Shown here: piece after piece, positions 33,129 to 64,000 of the stretch | Numbering within the stretch: position 1 is the stretch's first letter | Layout: each line of letters opens with the position of its first letter | Assembly (NCBI GenBank): GCA_043826565.1 | Contig: JBDRPX010000004.1 | Span: 10,232 to 74,231 of the forward strand | From: Candidatus Omnitrophota bacterium | GTDB lineage: Bacteria > Omnitrophota > Gorgyraeia > B26-G9 | DNA length: 64,000 bases | Reading direction: 5' to 3' | Notes under the pieces: model-generated | What the model saw: only the letters and a program-made list of their open reading frames with translations | Told to the model about the DNA's origin: nothing | The model's database searches: none | Translations under genes and position numbers: made by a program

Positions 33129-33395
33129 TGTGAACGATTTTCTATAACTTAATGATTACTAAATTGTTAGGCTAAATTTAAGAATGTCCCTGATTACAAT
33201 GATTAAAAAATTGATTACACCGATTGGACAAGTTGTCTTAAAAACCAGTTTTTCTTCTCGAGAGTTAAATATATTAATATCTGTGTAATCTTTTGAAAAT
33301 CTGTGAAATCAGGTTCTTTCAAGTTCACAAAAAATAAGAAAGAACCAAAAAAAGAATCATTGGCGCGTCGTTAGTTCTCTATAAATTTTCGAAGA

Positions 33396-34778: not shown

Positions 34779-34812
34779 GCAGGATATCATAGATAAACAA
34801 AAAGGTGGCGTT

Positions 34813-36693: not shown

Positions 36694-36697
36694 TTAC

Positions 36698-38808: not shown

Positions 38809-38834
38809 TATAGGTTTAATAATTAGGGGGAAGT

Positions 38835-43201: not shown

Positions 43202-43212
43202 AAGGACGAAAA

Positions 43213-45376: not shown

Positions 45377-45377
45377 A

Positions 45378-46433: not shown

Positions 46434-47098
46434 TTAAACGTTTATACACCTGGTTTCATAAAGCAGTTGCTAAGGATGAAGAAAAAGATCAGCCTTCGGG
46501 CGGGGTTTGGCCGCATGTAGTCAGAAAAGGGGTTTTAAATATCTGCCAGGCAACCCAGGGGGCAGTCATGGAAGTCGGCTGCGGGGAGGGATTATTTATC
46601 CGCCAACTGGCATTAAATAATCCAGGACTGAAAATTACCGGAGTGGATAATAATAGTGTTAAATTAGAAGAAGCAAAACGTAAATGCCATGAGCTTGGGC
46701 TGGTCAATGTTAACATAATATTTGCTGACGCAGCCAATATACCTGTTTCTGCGGAATGTTTTAATTGCGTTGTGTGTATAAATGTTTTGCTCAATTTACC
46801 TTCGATAGAAGTAGTCCGAAGCATTATAAAAGAAATATCCCGGGTTTGCGCGTGCGGAGGAAAGTTTGTGTTTGATTTTCGTAATTCCGCTAATCCGGTG
46901 GTTAATTTAAAATACAGGCTGGCTCCTTATTATGATGAAACAGTTAAAAGAGACAGTTTGCCGTTAAATACATATTCATCCAAGCAGATCACGGCGCTGT
47001 TATCGGAAAACAAGTTTAAGGTCATTAGCCGGAAATATCTGGGATTTCCTTATAATCGGTTAGCGCCGATTATTATAATTGAGGCGGAAAAATGTTAA
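46430..47098 (+). CDS. class I SAM-dependent methyltransferase
   Basis: Motif I VMEVGCGEG. Confidence 0.6.
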   Translation: MIKRLYTWFHKAVAKDEEKDQPSGGVWPHVVRKGVLNICQATQGAVMEVGCGEGLFIRQLALNNPGLKITGVDNNSVKLEEAKRKCHELGLVNVNIIFADAANIPVSAECFNCVVCINVLLNLPSIEVVRSIIKEISRVCACGGKFVFDFRNSANPVVNLKYRLAPYYDETVKRDSLPLNTYSSKQITALLSENKFKVISRKYLGFPYNRLAPIIIIEAEKC

Positions 47099-48246
47099 GA
47101 AAAGTACCAATAGTTGCTGTGCCCATCGAAATTACGGATTTATTAGCGGGGTTTAATGCTTTTAGCCGGAAACTCAGTCCCGGCAGTGAACCTTCGGATG
47201 TATTTTTTGCTGATTCCGCAACAGCCTGTCTTTACACATTCCTGCAGATTCTTAAAGGTCAGTCAGATAAACAGGAGGTCATCCTGCCGGCTTATACGGC
47301 ATCGACATTAGTGATCGCGATTCAAAAGGCGGGATTAAAACCAGTGCTTTGTGATATCCGCCTGACTGATTTTAATATGGACCCGGATTCATTAAGGCAG
47401 ATTATTACGGAAAAGACATTAGCGATTATCGGTGTGCATATGTTTGGAATTGTTGATGCGGGGTTGGGTAATATTAAAAAACAATTTCCGGAAATTATCG
47501 TTATTGAAGATTGCTGCCAGGCGATGGGAAGCGAAATTGACCGTGAATTTGTGGGCAAAATGACAGATGTAAGCCTGTTTAGCTTTAATCGCGGTAAAAA
47601 CATTCCCACTTACGGCGGCGGTTGTTTGGGTTTAAATATTAAATTTCTTATAGACAAGATTAAGCAGTCCGGGGTAAGGGAACAGCCGGTGACATTGGCG
47701 CAGGAACTTAAATCAGCAGTTAAGCTGATGGCTTTAGCTGTTATTATGCGGCCGTGGGTATATGGGGCGGCTTTGCCGTTTATCGCGGGTTTAAAAGAGA
47801 AAGCTCCGGCAGAGGATTTTGCGGTCCAGGGGTATACGAAGTTTCAATTAGGTGTTCTCGGTTCTCTATTAAAGAAAATGAAATCACTAAGTCAACAGCG
47901 TTATATTAATGGAATGAAATTAATCGAAGGATTGCAGAAAACAGAAGGGGTTTGTACCCCGGAAATCGCGAAAAATACTAAGCCGGCATTTAACCGCCTG
48001 CCGGTTTTATTTAATGATCCTAAGGAGAAAGAAACCACTCAGAAGAATTTAAGTAGGTCCGGCATAGAAACTTCCCAAATGTATTTTAAACCATTGCATC
48101 ATATTTTTGCTTTAGGATATAAAAAAGAAGAATTTTCTAACGCGGTTTATCTGGCGCAGCATCTTTTGACTTTACCAACACATCCTTTGCTTGCGGATAG
48201 CGATATAGAAAAGATCATTAAAACGATAAGGCGGGTAGTTAAATGA
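47092..48246 (+). CDS. DegT/DnrJ/EryC1/StrS-family PLP enzyme (sugar aminotransferase-like)
   Basis: FSFNRGKNI putative PLP-Lys block and overall DegT-like blocks, but divergent. Confidence 0.5.
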   Translation: MLRKVPIVAVPIEITDLLAGFNAFSRKLSPGSEPSDVFFADSATACLYTFLQILKGQSDKQEVILPAYTASTLVIAIQKAGLKPVLCDIRLTDFNMDPDSLRQIITEKTLAIIGVHMFGIVDAGLGNIKKQFPEIIVIEDCCQAMGSEIDREFVGKMTDVSLFSFNRGKNIPTYGGGCLGLNIKFLIDKIKQSGVREQPVTLAQELKSAVKLMALAVIMRPWVYGAALPFIAGLKEKAPAEDFAVQGYTKFQLGVLGSLLKKMKSLSQQRYINGMKLIEGLQKTEGVCTPEIAKNTKPAFNRLPVLFNDPKEKETTQKNLSRSGIETSQMYFKPLHHIFALGYKKEEFSNAVYLAQHLLTLPTHPLLADSDIEKIIKTIRRVVK

Positions 48247-49280
48247 AAAAAATTCTTATTGCCAATTTTGGGGGGATCAAAGATATTATGCTTTCTGCTC
48301 CGGCTTTGCAGGCGCTAAAAAAAGCTGATCCTGATTCCGTTCTGCATATGCTTATTTTCCCTGAGCCGTTAGAATATGCGATGATGCTTTCCTGTATAGA
48401 TAATATCACTGTTTTGCAGAGAGAGCTGGTTTGTTTGTCCTCTAATTTAAAACTGCTTTTTGAATTACGTAAAGAAAAGTTTGATATTATGATCAATATG
48501 CGTACGCTTTTTACTAAAAAAGAAGCGAGTTACATCCAGTGGATTATTAATGCGGTTAACCCTCAGTTAAAAGTCGGCAGAAATACTGATGGCCGCGGTA
48601 AATTTTTTGATATTAAGATTCCGGAAACATCGGTCGGAGAAAAGTATGAGATGGAATATAATAGTGATATCGTAAAAGCTTTGGGAGTCGAAGAGGTAGG
48701 ACGGGATATTGATTTCCCCATTGATGAAAAAAGCCAGGAATACGCGGATGATTTGCTCAAACGTGAAGGTATTGAAGAAAATATGTTTCTTATGGGGATT
48801 CATCCCGGAGGAGGAGTGTTACGGCGCTGGTCAATAGATAAATTATGCGAGGTTATAAGAGAACTTAATAAGAAATTCTCATTTCGTTATGTGATCACCG
48901 GAAGTAACGATGAAAAAGACCTGGGCGAATATATTGTTAAGGAAATAGAAGAGGGCCGGGTGATTGACCTTACCGGAAAACTGGGCATGCCTTCATTAGG
49001 CGCGGTAATTAAAAGATGTAATTTGTTTGTTTCTAATGATGCCGCTCCGTTACATATTGCCGCGGTATTTAAAACTCCTTTGATCGCTTTGTTTGGGTCT
49101 ACAGACCTAACGCGGTATGATCCGCGTAATATATGCGATAAAGCGGAAATTATTTATAATAAACAGGACTGCGCGCCTTGTAAAAAATCCAAATGTGAAG
49201 CAATAAAGTGCATGGATAGTATAACCATAGAGTCGGTAGTTCAGGCCTGTTTGAAATTTATTAATCCGGTGCAGCTTTAA
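48243..49280 (+). CDS. family 9 glycosyltransferase (second copy)
   Basis: KILIANFGGIKDIMLSAPALQAL and APLHIAA blocks; paralog of the gene at 45378. Confidence 0.7.
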   Translation: MKKILIANFGGIKDIMLSAPALQALKKADPDSVLHMLIFPEPLEYAMMLSCIDNITVLQRELVCLSSNLKLLFELRKEKFDIMINMRTLFTKKEASYIQWIINAVNPQLKVGRNTDGRGKFFDIKIPETSVGEKYEMEYNSDIVKALGVEEVGRDIDFPIDEKSQEYADDLLKREGIEENMFLMGIHPGGGVLRRWSIDKLCEVIRELNKKFSFRYVITGSNDEKDLGEYIVKEIEEGRVIDLTGKLGMPSLGAVIKRCNLFVSNDAAPLHIAAVFKTPLIALFGSTDLTRYDPRNICDKAEIIYNKQDCAPCKKSKCEAIKCMDSITIESVVQACLKFINPVQL

Positions 49281-49317
49281 TCCCGGACCAGAATTTGATT
49301 AAGATAGGGGAAAGATA

Positions 49318-49878
49318 ATGAATATAAAAGGCGTGCATTTTAAATCAATGTTATCGGCGGTGAAGATACTTTTTGGAGAAGAGGGGTTTAAAAAGGCAGT
49401 AAGCGGTCTTACTGAAGAGGATAAAAAGATTGTCAATACCGAACGAATGGCGAGCGTAAGGTTGTTACCTTTAGATTCGGTAGTACGTTTTATGGAAATA
49501 GTTATCCGGGATTTAGCTGCTGGTGATGAAAGAATAGCTTTAAAAATGGGAAAAATAGTCGGAGACCTCGAACTTAACAGTATTTACCGGGTGTTTATAA
49601 CAACCATCGGTAATCCGGAATTTATTGTTAAGAAAACACCGATGATCTTTGAAGCTCTCCATGATTCGGGAAAGCTTACTTTTGAAAAATCCGAGGAAAA
49701 TAATTTTTTGATGACGGTTACGGGTTTTAGCAAAAATCAGCGGGTTTATGAATTTGGGATGATGGGCTGGATAAAATATTATTTTGAACTAAGCGGAGTA
49801 AAATCCGTTAAAGCGGAAATAATAAAATCTATTGGGGCCGGAGAAAAGGAAGCTCAGTATAAGTTCTCCTGGGACTGA
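49318..49878 (+). CDS. hypothetical soluble protein (186 aa)
   Basis: ORF with an RBS (GGGGAAAG). I do not recognise a family with confidence. Confidence 0.4.
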   Translation: MNIKGVHFKSMLSAVKILFGEEGFKKAVSGLTEEDKKIVNTERMASVRLLPLDSVVRFMEIVIRDLAAGDERIALKMGKIVGDLELNSIYRVFITTIGNPEFIVKKTPMIFEALHDSGKLTFEKSEENNFLMTVTGFSKNQRVYEFGMMGWIKYYFELSGVKSVKAEIIKSIGAGEKEAQYKFSWD

Positions 49879-51462: not shown

Positions 51463-51801
51463 GTAGATAAGGTTAACAGATAAGCCTGTTTTCGTCAAGG
51501 TACAAGACAGTCGCTAAGCGCTCAGCTACTGCGTTATTTTTTCGCTTACTTGTGCGACGTGCATTTTGCACGCCTCCGCGTTCGCTCAAAAAAGCCTTGT
51601 ATCTGAGCACTTTTCGACAGCTTGTATGATTCTTTATGGTTTTTGTTTAAGTTATCTGTGTCTTGGGTCTTGCGTCTTGAGTCTATTAATTTTTTCCCTT
51701 GTAAGTGTTTTTATGACTGTGATACAATTAAATAAATAGGGGCGGGGCAAAAATACCGCAGATATTTCATGGAATGGATTATTAAAGACAAGGAGTGGGG
51801 T

Positions 51802-53193
51802 ATGACTATTTATCGCCAAAGTTTATTTTTAGCAGCAGTTGTTATTCTTTCCTTAGTTTTCCTCTGTTTACCTTCTTACGCGCAGGATCCCCAGACTAAA
51901 CCGCCGGAAATTGCCGGAGAGTTTTTCGGCATGCCGGTACCTTCAAGTAATTACTTTTTTGCCAAAAGGGTGATCATGTCTTATGGCGCTAAATGGCGCG
52001 GATCTCCGCAAACCCAGGCAGAACTAGAAGATATGGTTTGGCAGGAGCTTTTATTTTCATTTGAAGCATATCGCCGGGGCATAGAGGTAAGCCAGGAGGA
52101 AATTGGCGAGGAAATCGAAAAAATATTAAAAGCGCAAAAGGCAGAATTCAATTGGCGCTTGGATAAAGAGGAATTTGAAAAATGGGCAAAGGATACTTTG
52201 GGGGTTCCGGTAGATATGTTCATGAATCAAATAGAACATTTGGCTAAGATCGAAAAACTGCGTCAGGAAGTGATCGATAGTATTGAACCGGAAGTTACGG
52301 ATGAGGAAGCTTATCAGAAATTTTTAAATGAGTATAATACTCTTTTGGTGGAATTGATCCAGTTTGATGATCTGGAAAAAGCAAAAGATTTTTATGAAAA
52401 GTCCATTCTGCCGATCGCGGATAATGCTCCGGAGCAGCTTGTTTGGGATGACTTAATTCTATCCGATGAGGCTTCCAAACGGGGAATTAAAGCCGAAGAT
52501 GAAGAGGTGGACAAAGCGGTTTCGGCATTATTGCGGGCCAAAGAAGCCAGGTTTAAGTGGCAAGAAGATAATGAATCGTTTAAAAAATGGATTGAGGAAA
52601 CAACCGGAGAAACCGAAGAAGGGTTTCGTCAGCGTTTTAAAGCTTTTGTAAAGATCGGTAAGCTTATGAACAAGATATCCGCAAAGGAAGAGCCGGAAAT
52701 TAAAGATAAGAAATATAAAAAGTTTCTTAAAAATAATAAGACTTATGCGCAGGCATATGCGGAGTTTTTCGCGGCTTATAAGCCAACAGGCGATGTCCTT
52801 AATTTTGCTTCTTTTGAAGAAGCCTTAGCTTATTATCAGAAGATAGATAGACAGCCGGGGTTCTGGGAAGACCGCAAGAGAGAAAACCCGGATCTATTTA
52901 AACAGCCGGGATTTGTGGCCCTGGATTTTCTGCTGAATATGTGGGGTTTTAAAAAAGAAGACGCTTATAAGATGCTGGATGCGGAAATCGGGGCGTATTA
53001 TCCGCCGTCTCCTATATATAAGGGATATGGTGTGTTTAAGATCCTGAAAATCCGTAAGGCAAAGCCTGAGGAATATGAGGGCCGCAAAGATTATTATGTG
53101 GAAAGGGTAAAATCTATCAAAAAATATGATGGTTTTACCGCGTGGGTCAAAGAGCTTAAAGAACAGGCTGATATAAAAAGATTTATTCAGTAA
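51802..53193 (+). CDS. secreted protein with internal ~100-aa repeats, function unknown
   Basis: Signal peptide ending AQD. Repeated blocks (KWRGSPQTQAELEDMVWQE... / ...RFKWQEDNESFKKWIEE...). RBS AAGGAG. Confidence 0.5.
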   Translation: MTIYRQSLFLAAVVILSLVFLCLPSYAQDPQTKPPEIAGEFFGMPVPSSNYFFAKRVIMSYGAKWRGSPQTQAELEDMVWQELLFSFEAYRRGIEVSQEEIGEEIEKILKAQKAEFNWRLDKEEFEKWAKDTLGVPVDMFMNQIEHLAKIEKLRQEVIDSIEPEVTDEEAYQKFLNEYNTLLVELIQFDDLEKAKDFYEKSILPIADNAPEQLVWDDLILSDEASKRGIKAEDEEVDKAVSALLRAKEARFKWQEDNESFKKWIEETTGETEEGFRQRFKAFVKIGKLMNKISAKEEPEIKDKKYKKFLKNNKTYAQAYAEFFAAYKPTGDVLNFASFEEALAYYQKIDRQPGFWEDRKRENPDLFKQPGFVALDFLLNMWGFKKEDAYKMLDAEIGAYYPPSPIYKGYGVFKILKIRKAKPEEYEGRKDYYVERVKSIKKYDGFTAWVKELKEQADIKRFIQ

Positions 53194-53308
53194 TAAGTGG
53201 TAAGAATTAAGGATTAAGAAGAAAACAAAAGGCAAAAAATAAAAGAAAAAAAATATAAATTAAAAAAATGTCACTTAATACTTACGACTTAATCCTTATG
53301 ACTTAATT
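53194..53308. repeat. intergenic quasi-palindrome (ttaaggattaagaag ... cttaatacttacgacttaatccttatgacttaa)
   Basis: Immediately upstream of the peptidase/kinase/PqqD/rSAM cassette. Confidence 0.55.
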
Positions 53309-53758
53309 ATGGAAGAAATCATTCTGAAGGCTAAAGTTGATCTTTTGTGCAAGCAGCTGCGGGAAACCGGGAGTATTCAGGTATCTGTGTCCGGCAATTC
53401 TATGTTTCCGTTTATGAAAAACGGAGATATGCTGCTGGTTGAGCCGATAAAAATAAAAGATGTTTTTCTCGGGGAAGTAGTAGTTGTCTATGCGCATAAT
53501 AATCTCTACTGCCACAGGGTTGCATTTAAAAATCCTAAATTTATTCAAACAAAAGCAGATGCCTTAGTACTCTGGGATGTTCCGGCAAATCAGGAAGACT
53601 TGATCGGAAAAGTTGTCGGCCGGGTCAAAAAAGGGAACATAATTCGTATTGATAATGGATGGCTGAGGATCGCGGGAATTTTAATATTAGGGTTTTCTTT
53701 TTTGGCCGCGCCCTTATATATCCCTTTACGGATGATAAAAAGGCTATTTAGAAAATGA
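53309..53758 (+). CDS. S24/S26-family (signal-peptidase-like) serine peptidase with C-terminal TM
   Basis: The SGNSMFPFMKNGDMLLV motif is characteristic of the S24/S26 catalytic Ser region. A downstream Lys candidate is present, followed by a hydrophobic C-terminus. Confidence 0.55.
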   Translation: MEEIILKAKVDLLCKQLRETGSIQVSVSGNSMFPFMKNGDMLLVEPIKIKDVFLGEVVVVYAHNNLYCHRVAFKNPKFIQTKADALVLWDVPANQEDLIGKVVGRVKKGNIIRIDNGWLRIAGILILGFSFLAAPLYIPLRMIKRLFRK

Positions 53759-54921
53759 GTACTTCTCTTACGGAAAAGCAGGCGATATTTGATTATTTTG
53801 TATTCACTCTTATCGCGAAACCTTCATTATTTGTCTTGGAAGATTATTCCGAGTTATTAAAATCAATGGACTGGCCTTATTTTTTAGAAAAGGTTTTTCG
53901 CGAGGGTATCTCCGGTTTGATCTTTTACCATGTGCTTAAAACTAAAAATTGCCATATATTTCCTGATGATGTCCGGGAGCAGTTAAGATATGATTATGAG
54001 AACAATCTGGGCCGGAATTTATTTTTAAGTCTTCGGACAATAGAATTCCTGGATTATCTGAATAAAGAAAATATCCGCGTATTGTTACTGCGCGGAGCGG
54101 ATTTTATCGACCGAATCTACCCGGATTACGGAATCCGGGCCATGGGAGATGTGGATATTATTATTGCTGAGGAAGATTTTAAGCGGGCTGAAAAAATATT
54201 CAATACTCTTGGGTATGAGAATTACAAAGGATACCGGTACTTGTTTTTAAAAGATGAGGTTTATATCGATGTTCATCTTGATCTTGCCGGTTATTGGCGA
54301 ATCCCATCACGTTTGCATACGATTAGCATTAAAAATGAAGATGTTTGGCGAGATGCCCAGCCCATAAATGATGTTCGCCCATTGATCCGGAAATTAGGGG
54401 TATATGACGCGATTCTTGCGGCTTGTGTTCATATGCAGGAACATTCGTTTAGCCGGTTGATATGGTTTGTCGATGTTTTGTTTTTGATAAAAAATGAAGG
54501 TGAGGATTTTAACTGGCCGCGGTTATGGGAAAGAGCCCGGCAGTGTAATCTGCATAAATCACTCATGTTTGCGCTTAGTTATTTGCAGGCCCGGGAGCTT
54601 ATAATTATTCCGGAAGATATGCTGCGGAATTTTAAGCAGGTGCCTTTAAATGGGTTTGAGTCAAGGTCCTTGCAGATACTTAGAATTAATAAGCGGGAAT
54701 ATATATCCGGAGAATTACTGTTCTTTTTTTCTCTGGGGACTTTAAAAGAAAAACTTAAATATATTAAAGAAGTACTGTTTATTAAAAAAGAGTTGTTTCC
54801 TTCGGTGCTCCCAAACGCCAATATCTGGAATTATATATGCCGGTTTTTTAGGATAGTATGGTACGGAGTGAGTAAATTATTCGCGGCATTTAAAAATGAA
54901 AACAAATTGATAAGCAGATAA
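53755..54921 (+). CDS. uncharacterised nucleotidyltransferase-family protein (PF14907-like)
   Basis: ~388 aa with the minimal NTase core GDVDIIIAEED. Its neighbourhood (kinase + PqqD) fits families seen in RiPP-like cassettes. Confidence 0.5.
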   Translation: MSTSLTEKQAIFDYFVFTLIAKPSLFVLEDYSELLKSMDWPYFLEKVFREGISGLIFYHVLKTKNCHIFPDDVREQLRYDYENNLGRNLFLSLRTIEFLDYLNKENIRVLLLRGADFIDRIYPDYGIRAMGDVDIIIAEEDFKRAEKIFNTLGYENYKGYRYLFLKDEVYIDVHLDLAGYWRIPSRLHTISIKNEDVWRDAQPINDVRPLIRKLGVYDAILAACVHMQEHSFSRLIWFVDVLFLIKNEGEDFNWPRLWERARQCNLHKSLMFALSYLQARELIIIPEDMLRNFKQVPLNGFESRSLQILRINKREYISGELLFFFSLGTLKEKLKYIKEVLFIKKELFPSVLPNANIWNYICRFFRIVWYGVSKLFAAFKNENKLISR

Positions 54922-54925
54922 GATT

Positions 54926-55762
54926 ATGAGAGAAATATTATTAAACATCGGCGGGATAGCGGTATTAGTTGCTAATGGCAATGAAGAGTTTATTTCTTTG
55001 TTAAAGGATAAATATAAAGATTTTGTCATGGAGTGTTCCGGGCTCGAAAACATCCGGATTGAGATGAATAATAAACGGATTGAAAACGAAACTCCCCGGA
55101 TTACAATTGATAAAGATGAGCAGCAGTATTCGATTATCGGTGATGAGTTCTTGGGCAAGCTGAATATAGAAGATAAAAGATGTGTTGTTTATATGCGAAA
55201 CAATGAGAGTTTGTTTGATACTTTCTTGAGGGTGCTTTTTTCGGTATTACTTGTTTATCAGGAAGGATTTTTGGTGCATGCTTCGGGTATATCCCGGGAG
55301 GGAAAAGGATTTCTTTTTCCCGGAGCTTCCGAACATGGTAAGACAACTACCGCGCGCCGGTTTTGTGAATCGGTGATATTTAGTGATGAACTGGTAATTG
55401 TTAAAAAACAAGATGACGGATTTTACCTTTTCCCTTCGCCGTTTGCCGGAGAATTCGTTGGTAGTAATATGAATGAACCGGCACGATTAGAAAAAGTTTT
55501 TATACTTACCCGGGAACATATCGGCGTAACGGAAAAGGTTAAGGATTTTGAGAGTTTTCTTAGCCTGCTGGAACGTATATTTTTCTTTGCTTCTGACGCG
55601 GTCCTAAATCAGAAGCTTATTGATTTAGCTAAACAATTATGTACAAGAGTTGCTTGTTTTAAAATGAATATAATGGAAGAGAAAAACTTAGAGAGGATTT
55701 TTGATGAAATTTCAAAAGATGATGATCGAGCGCAATGCCCAGGCAGCCTGGCAGGAAATTGA
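54926..55762 (+). CDS. HPr-kinase-C-terminal-domain-like P-loop kinase
   Basis: P-loop GASEHGKTT within an HprK-C-like region (LVHASGISREGKGFLFPGASEHGKTT). There is no HPr kinase N-terminal domain. Confidence 0.55.
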   Translation: MREILLNIGGIAVLVANGNEEFISLLKDKYKDFVMECSGLENIRIEMNNKRIENETPRITIDKDEQQYSIIGDEFLGKLNIEDKRCVVYMRNNESLFDTFLRVLFSVLLVYQEGFLVHASGISREGKGFLFPGASEHGKTTTARRFCESVIFSDELVIVKKQDDGFYLFPSPFAGEFVGSNMNEPARLEKVFILTREHIGVTEKVKDFESFLSLLERIFFFASDAVLNQKLIDLAKQLCTRVACFKMNIMEEKNLERIFDEISKDDDRAQCPGSLAGN

Positions 55763-56021
55763 AGATAATGTTGTGGTTGTTACTCCGGCTAATAGTAAAG
55801 TTCATGTTTTATCCGGTATCGGCGGGCGAGTTTGGCAGCTGCTGGAAGAGGAAAAAACCGGACAACAGCTTAGCGAGATTATAATTGAGGAATTTGATGT
55901 GGGGATAGAGCAGGTCCAAGCGGATGTGGATGGTTTTTTGCAGGAGCTTTTGGAGAAAGAGATTATAAAAGTACAGAGGACAGAGGACAGAAAACAGAGG
56001 ACAGAAGAAACTACGTGCTAA
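55704..56021 (+). CDS. PqqD-family peptide-binding chaperone (RiPP recognition element-like)
   Basis: ~100 aa with the PqqD signature AAWQEIEDNVVVVTP...VHVLSGIGGRVWQLL...EF.V...V..DV..FLQEL. It overlaps the end of the kinase gene. Confidence 0.6.
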   Translation: MKFQKMMIERNAQAAWQEIEDNVVVVTPANSKVHVLSGIGGRVWQLLEEEKTGQQLSEIIIEEFDVGIEQVQADVDGFLQELLEKEIIKVQRTEDRKQRTEETTC

Positions 56022-56088
56022 AATTTTTTTCAGACTTCTGATCTCTGACATCGGATTTCTGACTTCTTGTTTTCCTTCGGAGAAGCGT
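55975..56088. repeat. quasi-palindrome (cagaggacagaggacagaaaacagaggacagaag ... cagacttctgatctctgacatcggatttctgacttct)
   Basis: The left arm lies inside the 3' end of the PqqD-like CDS (encoding QRTEDRKQRTEE). The right arm is intergenic before the rSAM gene. Confidence 0.55.
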
Positions 56089-57096
56089 ATGACTATTTGG
56101 GATGAGGTCGGCAAGGCTATAAAAGAGAAGTATATTCCGATTACTATGGTTCTGGAAGCTACCCGGCAATGTAATCTGCAGTGCTGCCATTGCTATAATA
56201 TTAAGGACAATGTGCAGCTGAGTTTTGATCAGATAAAAGACATTGGCGGGCAGCTGCGCCGGGCCGGATGTTTGTTTCTGGTGCTTACCGGAGGCGAAGT
56301 GTTTACAAAACCGGATTTTCTGGACATTGCCGGATATTTACGTAAGCTGGGGTTTGATTTAAAAGTTTTTACTAACGGTACTCTGATTACTTCACAAATG
56401 GTGGAAAGAATAAAAGATCTTGCTTTTAGTGAGGTGGGAATAAGTATTCAGGGAATCAATGCTCAAACGCATGATCGAATTACGGGAAATCCGGGATCTT
56501 TTGCCAAAGCTTTATCGGCAGTAAAGATACTTAAGCAGGCTAAGGTTCCCGTAGGTATAAAAACTACTTTAATGAAAACTAATTTTAGTGAATATAAAGA
56601 AATCATGGAATTAGCGGACAATCTGGGAGTTACCTATGTTATTGATCCGGTTGTTTCTCCGCGGGATGATGGATCAAAAGATGTTTTATCCTGCCGGTTG
56701 AGTGATGGCCAGCTTGAAGAGTTTTATCGGGAACAATTTTCTAAAATTGATTCTGTTTCTGCAGAAGTCAATAATGAGGATATTTGTGAGGCGGGTAAAA
56801 TATTCGGCAGTATTTCGGTTTTAGGTGATGTGTATCCCTGTATTCAAATTCCTTTGAAATGCGGTAATGTTTTCCAGCAGGAGTTTAAAGAGATCTGGGA
56901 TAATAGTGATATTTTAAATAAAATGCGAACAGTAAAACTTTGTGATATTGAAGAGTGTGCGACTTGTAAGATAGCTTATGGCTGTACCCGATGCCCGGGG
57001 CTGGCTTATTTAGAGGACGGAGATTTGTTTGGGCCGTCTTCGGTGGCGTGTATGAACGCGCGTATCTATGAGAAAATTAAAGAGTTAAAAATATAA
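56089..57096 (+). CDS. radical SAM enzyme with C-terminal SPASM-like Cys-rich domain
   Basis: CNLQCCHC (C-x3-C-x2-C) near the N-terminus, and a C-terminal CDIEECATCKIAYGCTRCPG...VACMNA Cys cluster. Confidence 0.8.
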   Translation: MTIWDEVGKAIKEKYIPITMVLEATRQCNLQCCHCYNIKDNVQLSFDQIKDIGGQLRRAGCLFLVLTGGEVFTKPDFLDIAGYLRKLGFDLKVFTNGTLITSQMVERIKDLAFSEVGISIQGINAQTHDRITGNPGSFAKALSAVKILKQAKVPVGIKTTLMKTNFSEYKEIMELADNLGVTYVIDPVVSPRDDGSKDVLSCRLSDGQLEEFYREQFSKIDSVSAEVNNEDICEAGKIFGSISVLGDVYPCIQIPLKCGNVFQQEFKEIWDNSDILNKMRTVKLCDIEECATCKIAYGCTRCPGLAYLEDGDLFGPSSVACMNARIYEKIKELKI

Positions 57097-57100: not shown

Positions 57101-59056
57101 ATGGGATTAAAAATTAAAAATAATATTGGCAATAAACTTCTCGTTCAGATGATTATTGTGGTAATGATCATCGCCGCGGGATTCTATTCAATTATCAGCA
57201 TGCAGACTAAGGAGCTTGAGAAAAGAATATTCGATAAAGCTAAATTGTTTTCCACGATCCTGGGAGTGCATCTGGATAGAATAATCAGTGATAATATTTC
57301 CGCCTATAATAGCCTGCAAATGATTGTTAAGGGGATTGCTAAAACACATGAATCAGTAGAAGATATCCGGATTATTGCTCCGGAATTTATTGTCTTAGCT
57401 TCAAGTTCTCCGGAATATGTATGGCAGGCGGTAGATTCCGAGTATGTCGAAGTGATAAAAGATGTTGCCGCGAATATGAAGCCCCGGTCTTTGCTTAAGA
57501 CGGAATTAGGTAAAGACCTGGTTATCCATTTTATGCCTCTTTTGTCTTTGGATAAAGAAAAGCGGCTGATCGGAGTTATGCAGATCGCAGCGCGGTTTCC
57601 CTCACAGCAGGCGCAGACAATGGCTTATTTGCGCAGCAATAAGTCTGTTTATTATAAGGAGGAAGCCGCTGGATTTGCCCAGCAGGTATCTAAAGATCTT
57701 AAGAGCGCTTTGGATGAAGTGGATAAGAATTTTAGATATTTGGATGCTCTTTTGGCGAGTATGTTAAAGGATGATGAAATTCAGGATGTAAAACTATTTT
57801 CACATGATTTGCGTTTATTAGGATCCGGCAGTTCCGGACGCAAAACGCCGTTTATTTCTCAAAGAGAAATTGCTTTATATGAAAAAGCTGTTTTAGGTGA
57901 AGAAACATTGAACCTTAAGACCCCGGGGAAAAATGAGCAGCGCGAATTAGTCAGCCCGCTGTATTTAACACAAAATAATAATCGGGAGATCATTGGCGCG
58001 GTGGGAATCACAGTTTCCCTGATCAGGATAAATGCTTTAGTAGAGGCCCGGAGAAAAAATATTCTGGTGATGAGCCTGGTTATTATTGCCGCGTTTTGTT
58101 TGTTGATCGGTGTGTTTTTCAGAAAGACGGTTATGCTTCCGATAGATAAACTCATGGCCATGACTCAGCGGATAGGAAAGGGAAACTTCTCTCAGAAAGT
58201 AGTGATCAACTCTAATGATGAAATCGGCAGTCTGGCCCAGGCTTTAAACCAGATGTCGGATGAGTTGTTTAAATCAAAACAGGAAATAGAAAGATGGAAT
58301 CTTACGCTCAAAGATCGTGTGGTTGAGGTTACTAAGGAACTTCAGCAAAAGCAGGCCCAGCTTATGGAATCCGAAAGAATGGCGTCTTTGGGGGTGCTGT
58401 CGAGCGGGATTGCTCATGAAATAAATAATCCCTTGGGAATTATTCTCGGGCACGCGCAAATGCTGTTAAAGGAATTGAACACAAAAGGTAATATCCAGAA
58501 TGCCCAGGAAGCGGCGGTTCTTTTAAAGACCATAGAAGAATATACCAAGCGGTGTTCGTATATCGTAAATAGCCTCCTGGAATTTTCCCGAAAAAAAGAA
58601 TTGCAGTTTCAGTCTGTTTCGGTGACGGCGGCAATAGAGAATGCTTTAATGTTTACGAGCAGCCGTTTGGGGCAAAAGGGAATAAATGTAACCAAGGAAT
58701 ACAGTAAAAATATGCCTCAAATTTCCGCGGACTCAATACATCTGGAGCAGGTGTTTATTAATATAATTCTTAATGCCGAACAAAGTATGTCCGGAGGCGG
58801 CCAGCTGAAAGTAACCGCGGATATGAAAAAAAATGATATTTTGATCAGCTTTTGTGATACCGGACAGGGAATAGCTGAGGATGATCTTAAGAAAATATTT
58901 GATCCGTTTTTTACCACGCGTCAGCCGGGAGAAGGATCCGGATTAGGGCTGGCGATTAGTTATGGAATTATTAAGGCGCATAGCGGAGATATAATTGTGG
59001 AAAGTAAAAAAGGCCAAGGCACAAAAGTAATGGTGAAACTGCCAATAAAAAAATAA
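57101..59056 (+). CDS. sensor histidine kinase (TM - periplasmic/sensor region - HAMP - HisKA - HATPase_c)
   Basis: H-box GIAHEINNPLG and the G1/G2 boxes (DTGQGI, GSGLGLAIS). Confidence 0.8.
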   Translation: MGLKIKNNIGNKLLVQMIIVVMIIAAGFYSIISMQTKELEKRIFDKAKLFSTILGVHLDRIISDNISAYNSLQMIVKGIAKTHESVEDIRIIAPEFIVLASSSPEYVWQAVDSEYVEVIKDVAANMKPRSLLKTELGKDLVIHFMPLLSLDKEKRLIGVMQIAARFPSQQAQTMAYLRSNKSVYYKEEAAGFAQQVSKDLKSALDEVDKNFRYLDALLASMLKDDEIQDVKLFSHDLRLLGSGSSGRKTPFISQREIALYEKAVLGEETLNLKTPGKNEQRELVSPLYLTQNNNREIIGAVGITVSLIRINALVEARRKNILVMSLVIIAAFCLLIGVFFRKTVMLPIDKLMAMTQRIGKGNFSQKVVINSNDEIGSLAQALNQMSDELFKSKQEIERWNLTLKDRVVEVTKELQQKQAQLMESERMASLGVLSSGIAHEINNPLGIILGHAQMLLKELNTKGNIQNAQEAAVLLKTIEEYTKRCSYIVNSLLEFSRKKELQFQSVSVTAAIENALMFTSSRLGQKGINVTKEYSKNMPQISADSIHLEQVFINIILNAEQSMSGGGQLKVTADMKKNDILISFCDTGQGIAEDDLKKIFDPFFTTRQPGEGSGLGLAISYGIIKAHSGDIIVESKKGQGTKVMVKLPIKK

Positions 59057-59108
59057 TTAACCTGTAGGGGCCTGGCTTGCCTGGCCCGCAACTTCAAGAG
59101 GTTTTTCA

Positions 59109-60521
59109 ATGCACAAAGAGCATATTTTAGTTGTCGATGATGAGCATGGAATGCGGGAATATCTAAAAAAACTTTTAACGGATAATAATTATTTCGTATC
59201 CCTTGCCGCTAATGGCGCGGAGGCATTAGAGCAGATAAAAAATGATGAGCCGGCTGTGGCCTTAATGGATTTTAAAATGCCGAATATGAACGGATTGGAA
59301 CTGTTGGAAAAATTTAAACAGATGCATCCGCATATAACGGTGATCATGATGACTGCTTACGGCACGGTGGAAAACGCGATCAAAGCTATGAAGCTGGGCG
59401 CGTATGATTATCTGAATAAACCATTTGAAATGGAAGAAATACTATTGGTTATCGCTAAGGCTTTAGAGAAAAGGCGTCTGGAAAAAGAAAACATTTCTTT
59501 GCGTAAGCAGATTAAAAAGACATATACTTTTGAGGATATTGTTTCCGGAAATAATCAAATGCAGCAAATTTTTGAAATTGTAAAAAAAGTGGCCGGGGCA
59601 AGAAGTACGGTGCTTATTGAAGGTGAAACCGGAACCGGTAAAGAACTGGTTGCCCGGGCTATTCATAACCTAAGCGAGCGGAAAGACAAGCCTTTTATTG
59701 CGGTTGACTGCAGTGCGCTTACGGAAAGTCTTTTAGAAAGTGAATTATTCGGCCATGTGCGGGGCGCGTTTACCGGAGCAACTAGAGATAAAAAAGGGCT
59801 TTTTGAAACTGCTGACGCCGGAACGATATTTTTGGATGAAGTCGGGCATATGTCTTTGGAGATTCAGTCAAAATTATTACGCGTATTGCAGGAGGGGGAA
59901 ATTAAGCGTGTCGGCCAGGCTACTCCGCATAAAGTGGATGTCCGCCTTATTGTTGCGGCTAATGAGCGTTTGGAAAACAGGATAAAAGCCGGTAAGTTCC
60001 GGCAGGACCTTTATTACCGGATCAATGTCGTGCCTGTATATCTGCCGCCGCTTAGAGAGCGCAGTGAAGATGTGCCTCTTTTGATTGAATATTTTATTGG
60101 GAAGTATAATAGTATTGAAGGCAAACAGTTAAAGGATATATCTCTGGATGCGTTGAAAGTTTTAATGGATTATTGCTGGCCGGGGAATGTGCGGGAACTG
60201 GAAAATCTTATTCATCGCGCGGTGGTTATGGAGGTAGGGCCAATGATCACTCTTAATGATTTGCCCGCAAACATAAGAATGCCGGAGACCGCGGAAAAGC
60301 GGGAGGAATTGCCGCGGATAAAAAATTTCCGCCAGGCCAAGCGAAAAATCGTAGAGTCATTTGAAAAAAGGTTTTTAACGGAAGCCTTGACGAGGCATAA
60401 CGGCAATGTGAGTAAAGCGGCGAGAGAAATGGGATTGGATCGGAGGAATTTGCAAAGGAAATTTAAAGATTGTGATATAGATTCTGATAAATTTAGAGTT
60501 AAGGGAAGACCTCTCACCTAA
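59109..60521 (+). CDS. sigma-54-dependent response regulator (REC-AAA+-HTH, NtrC family)
   Basis: REC Asp pocket (VVDDE...D), Walker A GETGTGKE, the GAFTGA motif, and a C-terminal Fis-type HTH. Confidence 0.9.
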   Translation: MHKEHILVVDDEHGMREYLKKLLTDNNYFVSLAANGAEALEQIKNDEPAVALMDFKMPNMNGLELLEKFKQMHPHITVIMMTAYGTVENAIKAMKLGAYDYLNKPFEMEEILLVIAKALEKRRLEKENISLRKQIKKTYTFEDIVSGNNQMQQIFEIVKKVAGARSTVLIEGETGTGKELVARAIHNLSERKDKPFIAVDCSALTESLLESELFGHVRGAFTGATRDKKGLFETADAGTIFLDEVGHMSLEIQSKLLRVLQEGEIKRVGQATPHKVDVRLIVAANERLENRIKAGKFRQDLYYRINVVPVYLPPLRERSEDVPLLIEYFIGKYNSIEGKQLKDISLDALKVLMDYCWPGNVRELENLIHRAVVMEVGPMITLNDLPANIRMPETAEKREELPRIKNFRQAKRKIVESFEKRFLTEALTRHNGNVSKAAREMGLDRRNLQRKFKDCDIDSDKFRVKGRPLT

Positions 60522-60558
60522 AAGGTTCGAGGTTAATTTGTTTACACAAATTAAGGAG
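60506..60558 (+). promoter_or_regulatory. conserved leader element, copy C (overlaps the stop codon of the response-regulator gene)
   Basis: AAGACCTCTCACCTAAAAGGTTCGAGGTTAATTTGTTTACACAAATTAAGGAG, with the ATG 7 nt downstream. Confidence 0.55.
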
Positions 60559-60565
60559 GTGTTGT

Positions 60566-61039
60566 ATGAAGTGTCCGAAGTGTGATAGTGCTCTAAGGAC
60601 GGCTAAGCATAGTGATGTTACCATTGATTTCTGTGAATTATGTTATGGAATTTGGCTGGATAAAGGGGAGTTGGAAAGAATAGCTGCTTATGAAAAAAAA
60701 GACGCGGCAAAAGCTGTGGAAACCCTGAAGAACTTGCTTAAGGCGGAAAATGAAATTGTTCAGGAGCAGAGTATTTGCTGTCCGCATTGTGAACAACAAA
60801 TGCAGAAAATTAAATTCACCACTAAGGACGGAATTGTTGCCGATAAATGTGCCGGCTGCCAGGGTATTTGGTTTGATAAGGGTGAATTAATATCAATTAC
60901 TGATCATATGGACGGAAAAAAGAATTCTAATCCAGGCCAGAGCAGGGATGTTTCCCTCTTACCCAGCATATTGGCTTTGGGAGGTATCATTGCTTTGTTC
61001 ATTTTATTATTGATTTGGGCTATTAGTTATTTTAAATAA
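60566..61039 (+). CDS. membrane-anchored protein with two TFIIB-type zinc ribbons (zf-TFIIB/PF13453-like)
   Basis: Two copies of the pattern CPxC...C.LC.GIW.DKGEL, followed by a C-terminal TM helix. Confidence 0.6.
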   Translation: MKCPKCDSALRTAKHSDVTIDFCELCYGIWLDKGELERIAAYEKKDAAKAVETLKNLLKAENEIVQEQSICCPHCEQQMQKIKFTTKDGIVADKCAGCQGIWFDKGELISITDHMDGKKNSNPGQSRDVSLLPSILALGGIIALFILLLIWAISYFK

Positions 61040-61159
61040 TAGCGTGTTTAATGTCGCGATGTGTCTAAAAATACGCATTAATTTTATTGATTTTGCGTTT
61101 TCAGAATTTCCTCATATTTTTATAAATATAACTCCTGTATTTTAAATAGGTTATATCAA

Positions 61160-61172
61160 GGCAAAATTTGCC
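61160..61172. promoter_or_regulatory. perfect palindrome GGCAAA-A-TTTGCC, candidate enhancer (UAS) for the sigma-54 activator
   Basis: About 20 bp upstream of the -24 element. Confidence 0.35.
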
Positions 61173-61186
61173 GATTATTTATAGGT

Positions 61187-61202
61187 TGGCATATTGATTG
61201 CT
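61187..61202 (+). promoter_or_regulatory. sigma-54 (-24/-12) promoter TGGCAT-N5-TTGCT
   Basis: Matches the TGGCAC-N5-TTGCW consensus with the invariant GG and GC. It is 46 bp upstream of the ATG at 61248 and downstream of the sigma-54 activator gene. Confidence 0.6.
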
Positions 61203-61247
61203 TACTATATATATGTATATTTAAAAAATAAAAAATTGGAGTTAATA

Positions 61248-64000
61248 ATGTCAGCTAAAACCCTAAAAATCTTCCTGTTTTTTACCCTTATTTTTTGTGT
61301 TGGAGTAGTACCTGCGCAAGCCGGTCTTAAGGTGCAAAAAGGTGAGACGACTATTGTAAACGGTCAAACATCAGTAACAGTTAATATTACAGCAGTTAGT
61401 GATCTTTCCCGCGCAATGCTGCTGATGTGGTCATCTGGTGATAGCGGTACAGACTGGGGAGAAGCCTGGCAGGCAACCGGATATCTTTCTTCTACCAGCC
61501 AGATAGCTTTTGAGCGGGTGGGCACACGGGATGATTGTCAGATCGGATATTATGTTGTTGAAGCAGAAAATCAGGAATTCGAAGTTATTGACCGGGGATT
61601 AATGGTTATCGGGGCTGAGAATACGATGCAGGATACTGATATTTCTCAGGCGATTGACCAGGCTCATACCGCTATAATCGCAAGCTCAATGTTAGGAGAT
61701 GCCACCGGCAATGATGATGAAGTGCATAAAGGTTTTGCCACGGTACATTTTGTGGATAATGATACTATTCGCGCGACTCGAGGCGCTTCCGGAACATATT
61801 CCTGTGATGTGCGATATCAGGTGGTACAGTGGCTGGATATAATCAATGTGCAAAGTAAAGAATTTAGTTCATCTATTAGTACTACGGAACTTACCCAATC
61901 TATTGATACTCCTGTAACTGCAACGCGTACCTGGTTATATGCTACAGCCAGCCATTCCGGAGGCAGCGGTATTTCTCAGGTTGCGGTGGATACCTATCTT
62001 AAAGACGGATCAACTGTTGGATTTAGAAGGCGTCAAGGAACTTATAGTGACGCGATTCGCTGGTGGGCCATAGAATTTCCCTCAGATGTTTCTGTCCAGC
62101 ACGTATCTGGGGCAGCGGCAACCGGTGATCTTACTGTGGTAACACCGATCAGTGCGGTGACGATTGCTAATTCCTGGTCCGATGTTTATAATAATTGTAA
62201 TGGTACCGGACAGGCATTACCTCGTCAGGCTTTTTATACTCAGATTACATCAACAACTCAGGTTACCAATACCCGGTATTACAGCGGGCAGGCTGCGGAT
62301 TTATCCGTGGAAGTGATTGATACCGCAGGTTGGACTGTTACAGTGCCTACGGTAAATATTACGGTAACTCCTAATATTACCAAGTCACAAACCGCGGGAA
62401 ACCTGGAAATTAAACTGGTATTCAGTGAAAGTATGAACCCTTCCGTATCTCCGGTAGTGATGTATGACCCGGCGGGAACGACCGGAGCGCAGTCATGTAC
62501 CGGAGGGACATGGTCAACAACGACTTATTCTAATGATACTTATACGGTATATAATGATGCGGCGATCGATGAGGCTACCGGCGACGGCATTGCAGCTGTC
62601 AGTGTCAGCGGAGCAAAGAGCGTGATTGGGGTTATTATGACCCCGGATACTAATGATACCTTTGTCATCGATACTGCAGCGCCGGCAAATCCGGGCGCGC
62701 CGTGTAATGCCTGGGAAAGTTCAGCGAAAATAACTTCGCTGACCGATGATACCTGGCAGGAAAACGATGATACACCTTATTTTGAATGGGCCGGAGCAAG
62801 TGACAGCGGCGGTTCCGGAGTAAGCGGTTATTCTGTTTATTGGGGGAATGATCCAAATGGTGTACCGGCGGCAACTCAGGAACAGACAGCAGCTAATTTT
62901 GATGTGACCGCAGCCACAGGAGACGGGGTATTTTTCTTAAGAGTAAGGACATTTGATAATGCGTCCAATTACAGTGACCCGGTGACCTTATTTACATTTC
63001 GTTATGATGCCGGGGCACCAACAAATCCGAATGTGCCTTGTGATGGCTGGCAGACAAGTTTAAAGTTAGATGCAATCAGTAATGATACCTGGCAGGAAAG
63101 TGACGATACTCCCTATTTTGAATGGACCGGGGCCAATGACGCTGGCGGTTCCGGAGTAAGCGGTTATTCTGTTTACTGGGGAACTGATCCCGGAGGAGAG
63201 CCCGGGATTACGCAGGCACAGGGAAACGCCGATTATGAAGTAACTACTCCAACCGGTGACGGGACTTATTATTTAAGGGTGAGAACATTTGATAATGTGA
63301 ATCATTACAGCGCGCCGGTAACTTTATTTACTTTTCATTATGATGCGACTGCGCCGTCTAATCCCAACACTCCCTGTAATGCCTGGGATTCTTCTTCTAA
63401 AAATACAGTGGTATCTGACAATATTCCGCAAGGCGCGGACGATACTCCTTATTTTGAATGGACCGGAGCCAATGACGGCAATGGGCAGGGAGTAAGCGGA
63501 TATTCTGTATATTTAGGAACGAATTCCGAAGGCGAGCCTGGAACTACTCAGGAGCAGTCCGGGGCCAGTTATGATGTAACGGCTTCAACGGGTGCGGGAA
63601 CATTTTATCTGCGGGTGCGGACTTTTGACAGTTTGGGGCACTACAGTGAACCAACAACTTTGTTTACATTTATCTATGATGAAACCAAACCGACAATGAG
63701 TATCGGCGTGCTTCCTGATCCTGCCGGACATCGGGCAGTGGGGGAATTGGCATTTATCCTGATTTTTTCCGAGTCAATGGATACCGGAACAATACCGGTA
63801 GTAACCTATGACCCGGCCGGGTCAACTGGTTTGCAAAGTGCGGCTACTAATGGTTCCTGGTCGACGACTAACAATAATAATGACACATATACCGTATATA
63901 ACAGCAGTGCTATCAATAGTTCAACGGGTGACGGCATTGCGGCTATAACCATTAGCGCGGCTAAAGATATTGCCGGCAATACAATGCTTGATGATACTAA
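61248..64000 (+). CDS. giant secreted repeat protein (3' end beyond window); at least three ~105-aa tandem Fn3/Ig-like repeats
   Basis: My own translation shows a continuous frame from the ATG at 61248 to the window end. Signal peptide ...VVPAQA. Repeats APxNPxxPCxxW...DDTPYFEWxGAxDxGGSGVSGYSVYWG...RVRTFDNxxxYSxPxTLFTFxYDA occur three times. Confidence 0.7.
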   Translation, partial: MSAKTLKIFLFFTLIFCVGVVPAQAGLKVQKGETTIVNGQTSVTVNITAVSDLSRAMLLMWSSGDSGTDWGEAWQATGYLSSTSQIAFERVGTRDDCQIGYYVVEAENQEFEVIDRGLMVIGAENTMQDTDISQAIDQAHTAIIASSMLGDATGNDDEVHKGFATVHFVDNDTIRATRGASGTYSCDVRYQVVQWLDIINVQSKEFSSSISTTELTQSIDTPVTATRTWLYATASHSGGSGISQVAVDTYLKDGSTVGFRRRQGTYSDAIRWWAIEFPSDVSVQHVSGAAATGDLTVVTPISAVTIANSWSDVYNNCNGTGQALPRQAFYTQITSTTQVTNTRYYSGQAADLSVEVIDTAGWTVTVPTVNITVTPNITKSQTAGNLEIKLVFSESMNPSVSPVVMYDPAGTTGAQSCTGGTWSTTTYSNDTYTVYNDAAIDEATGDGIAAVSVSGAKSVIGVIMTPDTNDTFVIDTAAPANPGAPCNAWESSAKITSLTDDTWQENDDTPYFEWAGASDSGGSGVSGYSVYWGNDPNGVPAATQEQTAANFDVTAATGDGVFFLRVRTFDNASNYSDPVTLFTFRYDAGAPTNPNVPCDGWQTSLKLDAISNDTWQESDDTPYFEWTGANDAGGSGVSGYSVYWGTDPGGEPGITQAQGNADYEVTTPTGDGTYYLRVRTFDNVNHYSAPVTLFTFHYDATAPSNPNTPCNAWDSSSKNTVVSDNIPQGADDTPYFEWTGANDGNGQGVSGYSVYLGTNSEGEPGTTQEQSGASYDVTASTGAGTFYLRVRTFDSLGHYSEPTTLFTFIYDETKPTMSIGVLPDPAGHRAVGELAFILIFSESMDTGTIPVVTYDPAGSTGLQSAATNGSWSTTNNNNDTYTVYNSSAINSSTGDGIAAITISAAKDIAGNTMLDDT

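Follow-up and report, generated by a model that had tools for sequence, protein, structure and literature searches.

What decides when a bacterium makes a very long surface protein? The Omnitrophota are uncultured, very small and often host-attached or predatory, and a role in contact with other cells is ascribed to their very long surface proteins; to our knowledge, nothing is known about when these giant proteins are made. A stretch of 64,000 nucleotides from a Candidatus Omnitrophota bacterium (assembly GCA_043826565.1, contig JBDRPX010000004.1, positions 10,232 to 74,231 of the forward strand; hereafter the window, with positions counted from its first letter) poses the question for one such gene. 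Near its end, genes for a sensor histidine kinase and an NtrC-class activator precede a -24/-12 element and the beginning of a gene for a giant secreted repeat protein. We consider it probable, from the sequence evidence set out below, that the window holds a two-component, sigma-54-dependent switch for this one adhesin-like gene.

For comparison we fetched 13 related loci (cited by our handles, L001 and so on), searching genomes with the kinase sensor domain and metagenomes with the N-terminal domain of the giant protein, and collecting orthologues of the activator. A profile search with the giant-protein N-terminal domain gave 4 proteins, of which those of L007 and L008 came without useful upstream DNA, and the full 917 aa as a query returned almost nothing, as the repeats swamp the word index. 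In all 13 loci the order is the same: an upstream gene cassette, the kinase, the activator, an optional inserted gene, an intergenic region and a very long gene.

Promoter, regulators and giant gene

The sequence at 61187-61202 on the plus strand (TGGCAT, a spacer ATTGA and TTGCT; TGGCATATTGATTGCT) is an exact match to the sigma-54 consensus TGGCAY-N5-TTGCW. Its GG (61188-61189) and GC (61200-61201) are exactly 10 nt apart, the spacing proper to a -24/-12 promoter. The ATG of the giant gene follows at 61248, 45 nt after the motif, with a GGAG ribosome-binding site at 61238-61241. Counting both strands, the consensus occurs once in the 64 kb, against 0.08 occurrences expected from dinucleotide-preserving shuffles, and the same site is still the sole hit in the window when one mismatch is allowed. 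A looser scan, for TGG-N9-TGCW, gave no credible further promoter close to the cassette or to the exopolysaccharide (EPS) genes that lie further upstream. Standard -24/-12 numbering predicts a transcription start near 61213.

An element of this form lies upstream of the orthologous giant gene in 12 of 12 related loci (L001, L003-L006, L010-L015). Nine are exact, as is L006, a close relative of L004, and L003 and L005 are one base off each. The loci that carry it span about 39-62% guanine-plus-cytosine (GC) content, and the intergenic DNA around the element does not align. It is mainly because the promoter is kept across loci so diverged that we place high confidence in it: facing the giant gene from 45 nt upstream, and retained in the orthologous loci, 61187-61202 is very likely a genuine sigma-54 promoter. 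Among the loci, called start codons follow TGGCA at distances of 34 to 273 nt. In L011, where the promoter is at 12745 and the gene encodes 6,130 aa, the leader at 12790-12965 contains about five tandem repeats of about 33 nt (…AAAAATGAAAAAATAGTATGCTAAGAAATA…).

One related locus also encodes a sigma-54-like protein. In L015, a 361-aa protein (3848-4933, plus strand) lies within the cassette, between the S24-like peptidase and NTP_transf_5 genes. It carries a Sigma54_DBD domain (1.5e-22) and the RpoN box SRRTIAKYR, scores 98 bits against the TIGR02395 cut-off of 277, and aligns to residues ~233-471 of solved sigma-54, without region I and most of the core-binding domain. By this domain content it is a cluster-specific truncated sigma-54 paralogue, one that the L015 unit would have recruited for itself, and we count an RpoN-box protein inside the cassette as support for linking the cluster to sigma-54.

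The two regulators are encoded on the same strand as the giant gene. The kinase (651 aa, 57101-59056) consists of an N-terminal transmembrane helix, an extracytoplasmic sensor region of about 280 aa and a second transmembrane helix, followed by HAMP, HisKA and HATPase_c domains (Pfam E-values 2.3e-14, 3.9e-13 and 5.2e-24); dCache_1 matched only below threshold, and the protein reaches no NCBIfam equivalog cut-off. Its sensor domain is 45% identical to that of the L001 orthologue. The activator (470 aa, 59109-60521) matches Response_reg (1.9e-32), Sigma54_activat (3.3e-71), AAA_lid_14 and HTH_8 (5e-11), all above the Pfam cut-offs. Its translation reveals the receiver residues DD (aa 10-11), D54 and K104, an AAA+ domain with Walker A (GETGTGKE), Walker B (FLDEVG) and GAFTGA, and a Fis-type helix-turn-helix (HTH); the receiver aspartate, AAA+ domain and HTH together are those of an NtrC-class enhancer-binding response regulator.

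The activator is 100% identical to a protein (P0006) that NCBI names sigma-54 dependent regulator, from a Candidatus Omnitrophota metagenome-assembled genome. Its orthologues form about 40 clusters at 57-70% identity, and outside these identity falls to about 51%; among the related loci the HTH region is highly conserved. Every equivalog model scores the protein below its cut-off (AtoC 493.9 vs 714, NtrC 451.8 vs 558.6, PrsR 427.9 vs 502.6, ZraR 384.1 vs 760). Judged by these scores and identities, the activator belongs to a separate orthologue clade.

The giant gene (61248-64000, plus strand) is represented by its 5' part, 917 codons of a reading frame still open at the window end. A Sec-type signal peptide (aa 1-25, ending AQA) precedes an N-terminal domain of four beta modules of about 85 aa each (aa ~27-365), then Ig-like domains and three repeats of about 100 aa. 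The predicted structure of the N-terminal domain has a mean local confidence (pLDDT) of 82.6 and a global score (pTM) of 0.86. Over the roughly 340 residues that follow the signal peptide, metagenome orthologues share 52-69% identity where they can be aligned. Related loci have called lengths of 3,200, 4,279, 6,130 and 6,807 aa for the long gene, and the L001 protein has more than 20 further repeats of about 100 aa. Pfam and PDB sequence searches returned nothing significant for the repeat region, and a viral fold library gave TM-scores of 0.3 or less only. We picture the protein, from the resemblances of its fold, as a long secreted adhesin-like fibre that would end in a receptor-binding tip. 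A homologue of the N-terminal domain (P0004, 485 aa, 29% identity; L009, 8001-9458) sits in a phage structural block with terminase GpA, a portal protein and a Mu F-like protein, which fits the tail-fibre-like fold matches of the domain.

In the circuit that we propose, the membrane kinase would sense an extracytoplasmic signal and phosphorylate the receiver domain of the activator, which would oligomerise and bind upstream of the promoter through its Fis-type HTH. The conserved 37-bp dyad box of 61042-61077, some 170 to 135 bp ahead of the predicted start, would most likely be its site, and a second dyad at 61126-61156 may join it. The activator would then loop the DNA and, hydrolysing ATP by way of its GAFTGA loop, open the sigma-54 holoenzyme bound at 61187-61202, so that transcription would begin near 61213.

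Much of this had been anticipated in a preliminary description of the same stretch. Its reading of 61187-61202 as a sigma-54 consensus holds, with a gap to the ATG of 45 nt where it had given 46 bp, and the scan for the -24/-12 motif that it had suggested, run here on the 64 kb, yields the single match reported above. The histidine kinase and GAFTGA-intact activator that it placed directly upstream are borne out by Pfam and by motif reading, and the secreted repeat protein of more than 900 aa by 917 codons with a signal peptide. It had also called the kinase, activator, sigma-54 promoter and giant protein a self-contained unit; their order and the -24/-12 element recur in the 12 of 12 related loci.

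Candidate activator sites and competing explanations

Where would the activator bind? The distal box (61042-61077, about 37 bp, GCGTGTTTAATGTCGCGATGTGTCTAAAAATACGCA) has the consensus GYGTAAAwwwTGTCnCrRTGnGGCGwwwwwTACRCA and was tested with a leave-one-out sequence model, R1, trained on 7 other loci with the window sequence excluded. Within the window as a whole, R1 scores 61048-61080 best (E 0.034) and ranks that site, read on the minus strand, second; every further hit exceeds E 1.8. Across 168 kb of related loci, the model finds one site per locus (two in L010) and none elsewhere. Its finds include L003, L013 and L016, which had no part in the training, and that of L016 is well preserved (E 2e-8). 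Upstream of TGGCA, the start of the box is 144-148 bp away in seven loci and 158-161 bp away in three, and its distance from the preceding stop codon ranges from 3 to about 400 bp; gene insertions are all upstream of the box, never between it and the promoter.

The box is symmetrical in 75.7% of cells, against 27-56% with slid partners, and 11 cells have compensatory changes on both sides, a number equalled in 4 of 500 shuffles. Conservation extends beyond pairing to the sequence itself in the hairpin tip (CnCRRTGnGGC) and in the half-sites (TGCGTAA/TTACGCA). As a dyad conserved together with the activator and lying 80-200 bp upstream, the box has the character of an upstream activating sequence. 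In L010 it is duplicated, with about 50 nt identical: one copy (11421-11461) follows the activator gene and the other (16490-16530) precedes the promoter, so that the two flank a SecA-like gene.

The second dyad, ATATAAC-N17-GTTATAT (61126-61156), came from anchored alignments of 8 loci and a further model, R2, built on 7 loci without the window. Its consensus is CATAAC-N17-GTTATG and its centre lies about 46 bp upstream of TGGCA; the top hit of R2 in the window is 61123-61155 (E 0.0032). This dyad may serve the activator as a proximal site, or may be where a DNA-bending protein binds. The next-best R2 matches, at 33140-33171 (plus strand, E 0.055) and 31178-31201 (minus strand, E 0.31), fall in AT-rich intergenic DNA within the EPS locus, upstream of its genes for the Wzy-like and Wzz/kinase proteins and with no -24/-12 element nearby, and may reflect base composition only. 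We infer that this activator, rather than another, binds the two conserved dyads.

Several observations weigh against the circuit as drawn. The 64-kb window contains no rpoN; sigma-54 is presumably encoded in this genome, as the intact GAFTGA of the activator and the sigma-54-like gene of L015 indirectly suggest. In L016, TGGC is found where expected, at 144 bp, but is followed by a non-canonically spaced -12 part. The kinase and activator appear to share an operon with the cassette, so further or different targets are possible. When the inverted repeats shared by 5 loci were enumerated without bias, the result was no better than in shuffles; the distal box emerged only once more loci were added, and was then tested by the leave-one-out models. 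A strict half-site search for GCGTA-N3-TACGC succeeded for L003 and L001 only. The remaining points concern RNA: transcribed from the plus strand of the window, the box folds into a hairpin of -11.1 kcal/mol, against -5.7 for the minus strand; it lies only 3 nt past the upstream stop codon at 61039; in about 8 of 11 loci the hairpin leads into a T-rich run, which is interrupted in the window; and G·T mismatches exceed A·C by 9 to 2.

L016 is the most distant locus (activator 57% identical), and its target is a 1,285-aa protein. The region concerned (11418-11600) contains TGGCTGTAAAAGCTTG, in which the GC is two bases too near the GG for a canonical sigma-54 promoter.

Taken together, the RNA features could mean that the box is only a rho-independent terminator of the upstream operon, which insulates the giant gene, and that the activator site lies elsewhere, for example at the 61126-61156 dyad. 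The plus-strand hairpin is the more stable also in L001 (-15.2 vs -7.7 kcal/mol), L004 (-31.7) and L011. The hairpins of L004 and L013 are strong, that of L013 (-22.4) looking canonical with T7 after it. L010 has one box copy behind each of two consecutive genes, and we find no other terminator-like site between 61039 and 61160. However, the loop or tip and the half-sites keep their sequence across 39-62% GC, whereas terminators normally keep structure and not sequence, and the distance from box to promoter is fixed while that to the upstream gene varies. No T-run follows the box in L003, L015 or L016; the two tandem 13-bp palindromes of L003 and the three half-sites of L016 look like protein-binding sites. 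The RNAalifold consensus comes to only 4 base pairs and -0.31 kcal/mol, with 23% of cells mismatched. We therefore regard a terminator and nothing else as unlikely, and lean modestly towards 61042-61077 as a candidate enhancer of the activator, possibly in a dual role.

The regulators could instead control the cassette or distant genes, with another activator serving the giant-gene promoter. The kinase starts 4 nt after the stop of the radical SAM gene, the last of the cassette, and the kinase and activator are therefore probably in the cassette operon, transcribed together with it; variable inserts, moreover, separate the activator from the giant gene. Against this, the activator gene adjoins the unit of box, promoter and giant gene in all 13 loci despite the insertions, and neither the window nor the surroundings of the cassette in related loci hold another -24/-12 element or box copy. 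We judge this alternative improbable.

A third candidate for the activator's site is the perfect palindrome GGCAAA-A-TTTGCC (GGCAAAATTTGCC, 61160-61172), read from the sequence as a 6-1-6 dyad with an A4T3 tract. It ends 14 nt before the promoter motif and is centred about 21 bp upstream of TGGCA, at about -47 from the predicted start. The preliminary description had placed it about 20 bp upstream of the promoter, a figure that fits its centre, and had taken it for the enhancer. Its form, its single exact copy in the window and the related A/T-tracts at a similar offset in L004 and L006 (GGCAAAAATTTTC and GGGAAAATTTTC) speak for such a role. So does the unusual dyad symmetry of the 40 bp upstream of TGGCA: over 11 loci, the best dyad arms sum to 58, against 44.5 +/- 3.5 in shuffles (p ~0.001) and 38-51 in other 40-bp segments of the same regions.

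Yet the palindrome sequence is absent at this offset from L001, L003, L005 and L010-L015, despite a highly conserved activator HTH, and the dyads found there instead are unrelated in sequence, such as GCGGGATTCCCGC (L005) and AAAACATGTTTT (L012). An upstream activating sequence would be a dyad kept along with the activator and usually found 80-200 bp ahead of the start, and the palindrome does not answer to this: its centre lies inside or next to the polymerase footprint, and NtrC-class enhancer sites usually lie much farther from the promoter. A scan of the window for the palindrome, as the preliminary description had suggested, finds the single exact copy but shows no enrichment once up to 2 mismatches are allowed (7 hits vs 5.6 expected). 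An enhancer at 61160-61172 is thus highly doubtful, too near the promoter and unconserved in most loci.

The palindrome is plausibly an architectural, bending element or a lineage-specific site at most. A-tract DNA bends intrinsically, and AnTn tracts recur among the proximal dyads as CAAAATTTG in the window, two copies of AAAATTTT in L004, spaced by about 10-11 bp, and GAAAATTTTC in L006; the GC-rich L005 sequence misfits such a role. By eye, both the palindrome and the second dyad are unlike the E. coli consensus for integration host factor (WATCAANNNNTTR).

That the -24/-12 match is fortuitous, and that a sigma-70-type promoter within the AT-rich spacer drives the giant gene instead, is very hard to credit: weak sigma-70-like matches (9/12 positions) do overlap 61194-61249, but they are not above shuffles (20 found vs 15.7 +/- 3.2 expected), a scan of this kind being uninformative in DNA so rich in AT, and the -24/-12 element persists in 12 of 12 loci, GC-rich ones included, amid diverged surroundings.

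Gene neighbourhood and insertions

Housekeeping genes occupy the first 31 kb of the window, and an EPS locus follows at 31200-49878. It encodes a Wzz/tyrosine kinase, a Wzy-like protein, an AsnB-like amidotransferase, a flippase, methyltransferases, glycosyltransferases, PGA_cap, a B12-radical SAM protein and DegT. Between it and a SurA-like gene sits a divergent ATP-binding cassette (ABC) exporter. The SurA-like gene (51769-53193) opens the upstream cassette (51769-57096), which was delimited with Pfam and NCBIfam and lies wholly on the plus strand: an S24-like peptidase (53309-53758), NTP_transf_5 (53755-54921), a ScmC/HprK-like protein (54926-55762), PqqD (55701-56021) and a radical SAM/SPASM protein (56089-57096). 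No precursor-peptide gene is apparent in its short intergenic gaps. Both the EPS locus and the modification cassette, which the preliminary description had set beside the circuit, are thus real by Pfam and NCBIfam hits. GC skew is positive in every 2-kb bin of 1-64000 (cumulative +6.85) and nearly all long open reading frames are on the plus strand; the whole window would therefore lie on one replichore, with strongly co-oriented genes.

The cassette has an identical gene order in L001 and L010-L015, and in L016 it is reduced to PqqD and radical SAM. In the window, L001 and L010-L015, cassette and divergent ABC exporter are kept together with the kinase, activator and giant gene. It is tempting to speculate that this conserved block forms one functional unit, in which the kinase senses a cassette peptide or the cassette modifies the giant protein, and we offer this as a long shot. 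If the first were true, the cassette, resembling those for peptides made on ribosomes and modified after translation (RiPPs), would export a modified peptide in an autoinduction loop that times deployment of the giant adhesin; if the second, RiPP-type chemistry would act on a substrate of several thousand residues.

The gene inserted between activator and promoter region differs from locus to locus. In the window it is a zinc-ribbon gene (60566-61039, plus strand) for a 157-aa protein with two TFIIB-type zinc ribbons (Pfam Zn_ribbon_TFIIB, 1.4e-26, in two stretches) and a C-terminal transmembrane helix, and by comparison with the other loci it is a lineage-specific insert. The corresponding gene encodes a Y1 transposase in L003, L011 and L012, a tetratricopeptide-repeat (TPR) protein in L015, a 1,604-aa SecA-like protein in L010 and a 369-aa open reading frame in L005; L001, L004/L006, L013 and L014 have none.

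Y1 transposase genes of the IS200/RAYT-like kind (L003, 4569-5492; L011, 11497-12348; L012, 11462-12352; L014, 9054-9938) have inserted repeatedly at the junction of kinase, activator and box, in independent lineages. In L003, repeats resembling repetitive extragenic palindromes (ACAAAATAAGTCTGACTT...ATGTTCCATA) flank the box on both sides and occur in the 5' leader as well. The SecA-like gene of L010 (11645-16459), between the activator and the giant gene, encodes SecA_DEAD and P-loop_SecA domains, with SecA_PP_bind below threshold only. In L013, the promoter (TGGCATGGCCGTTGCA, at 11599) is followed by a giant gene that is uncalled, and the region 11690-13500 has no long open reading frame past the conserved N-terminus (…GLKVQQGTATI…); a frameshift, decay or mis-assembly is the probable reason.

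Comparison with known systems

The closest named relatives are AtoS/AtoC, which control atoDAEB in Escherichia coli. They too are an adjacent kinase and NtrC-class regulator with REC, AAA+ and HTH_8 domains, and AtoC is the best NCBIfam match of the activator, AtoS of the kinase core. However, the scores fall far under the equivalog cut-offs (221 vs 646 for AtoS, and as given above for AtoC), the sensor domain is unrelated, the phylum is Omnitrophota, and the target is a giant secreted protein rather than a catabolic operon. The verified AtoC site is an inverted palindrome of about 40 bp upstream of a sigma-54 promoter (PMC3118216). In size and form it is comparable to the 37-bp dyad box, and its published half-site, ending ATTTrCwCA, resembles the box arm TTTACRCA; we take this as a lead only.

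NtrB/NtrC with glnAp2 is the paradigm of enhancer-dependent sigma-54 activation, with dyad sites more than 100 bp upstream of the promoter and further sites nearer to it. The locus described here is alike in its -24/-12 promoter, its AAA+ activator with GAFTGA under phosphorylation control, and its dyads both beyond 100 bp and closer in. It differs in that the activator stays below the NtrC cut-off, nitrogen-metabolism genes are absent, and the kinase sits in the membrane and has a large extracytoplasmic sensor domain, whereas NtrB is cytoplasmic.

A kinase and sigma-54 activator beside an EPS locus, together with secreted proteins, also recalls the PrsK/PrsR systems of PEP-CTERM/exosortase EPS loci (TIGR02915/TIGR02916), and the EPS genes of the window resemble an XrtA system in their chain-length determinant, tyrosine kinase and amidotransferase. 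Membership is rejected on scores: the activator lies below the PrsR cut-off, XrtA-associated models score far under theirs, and the 64-kb window has no exosortase. The likeness to two-component/sigma-54 control of EPS-associated surface proteins drawn earlier holds as an analogy; as an assignment it fails, with the activator under the PrsR, AtoC and NtrC cut-offs and no exosortase found.

Within the phylum, giant proteins of the Archaeovorin and Dockerin types have been described and proposed to mediate attachment to, or attack on, other cells (bioRxiv 10.1101/2023.11.21.568195; 10.64898/2026.06.07.730766). The family described here is likewise very long, repeat-rich and provided with a signal peptide. 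The SecA-like gene of L010 is a further likeness, as West-Roberts et al. report SecA domains embedded in Omnitrophota giant proteins. In contrast, the published proteins have 30,000-147,000 aa, against 3,200-6,800 aa here, and the parts seen of the present protein have no HEAT, Dockerin or transmembrane-rich architecture. The published giants belong to a type II secretion-like locus, whereas the context here is a PqqD/radical-SAM cassette and a two-component system. Sigma-54, promoters and two-component control go unmentioned in the two papers.

The cassette itself, with its ScmC/HprK-like, PqqD, radical SAM/SPASM and NTP_transf_5 genes, resembles SynChlorMet (Scm) and GeoRSP cassettes and those lasso-peptide clusters that include an HPr-kinase-like enzyme and a nucleotidyltransferase; unlike them, it scores under all family cut-offs and has no evident precursor, lasso cyclase or protease. 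As far as we could find, no such cassette has been described in fixed linkage with a kinase, sigma-54 activator and giant gene, and the linkage gives this orphan PqqD/radical-SAM cassette family a first consistent genomic partner.

Set against these systems, the two-component/sigma-54 logic of the locus is textbook and the instance is new. Its interest lies in a putative circuit that is conserved across an uncultured phylum, appears to control a giant adhesin-like gene and is locked to an orphan radical-SAM/PqqD cassette. As such, it would provide a first regulatory handle on the giant surface proteins of the Omnitrophota, in the testable form of one sensor kinase, one activator, one promoter and two candidate operator sites that can be moved into a heterologous rpoN+ host.

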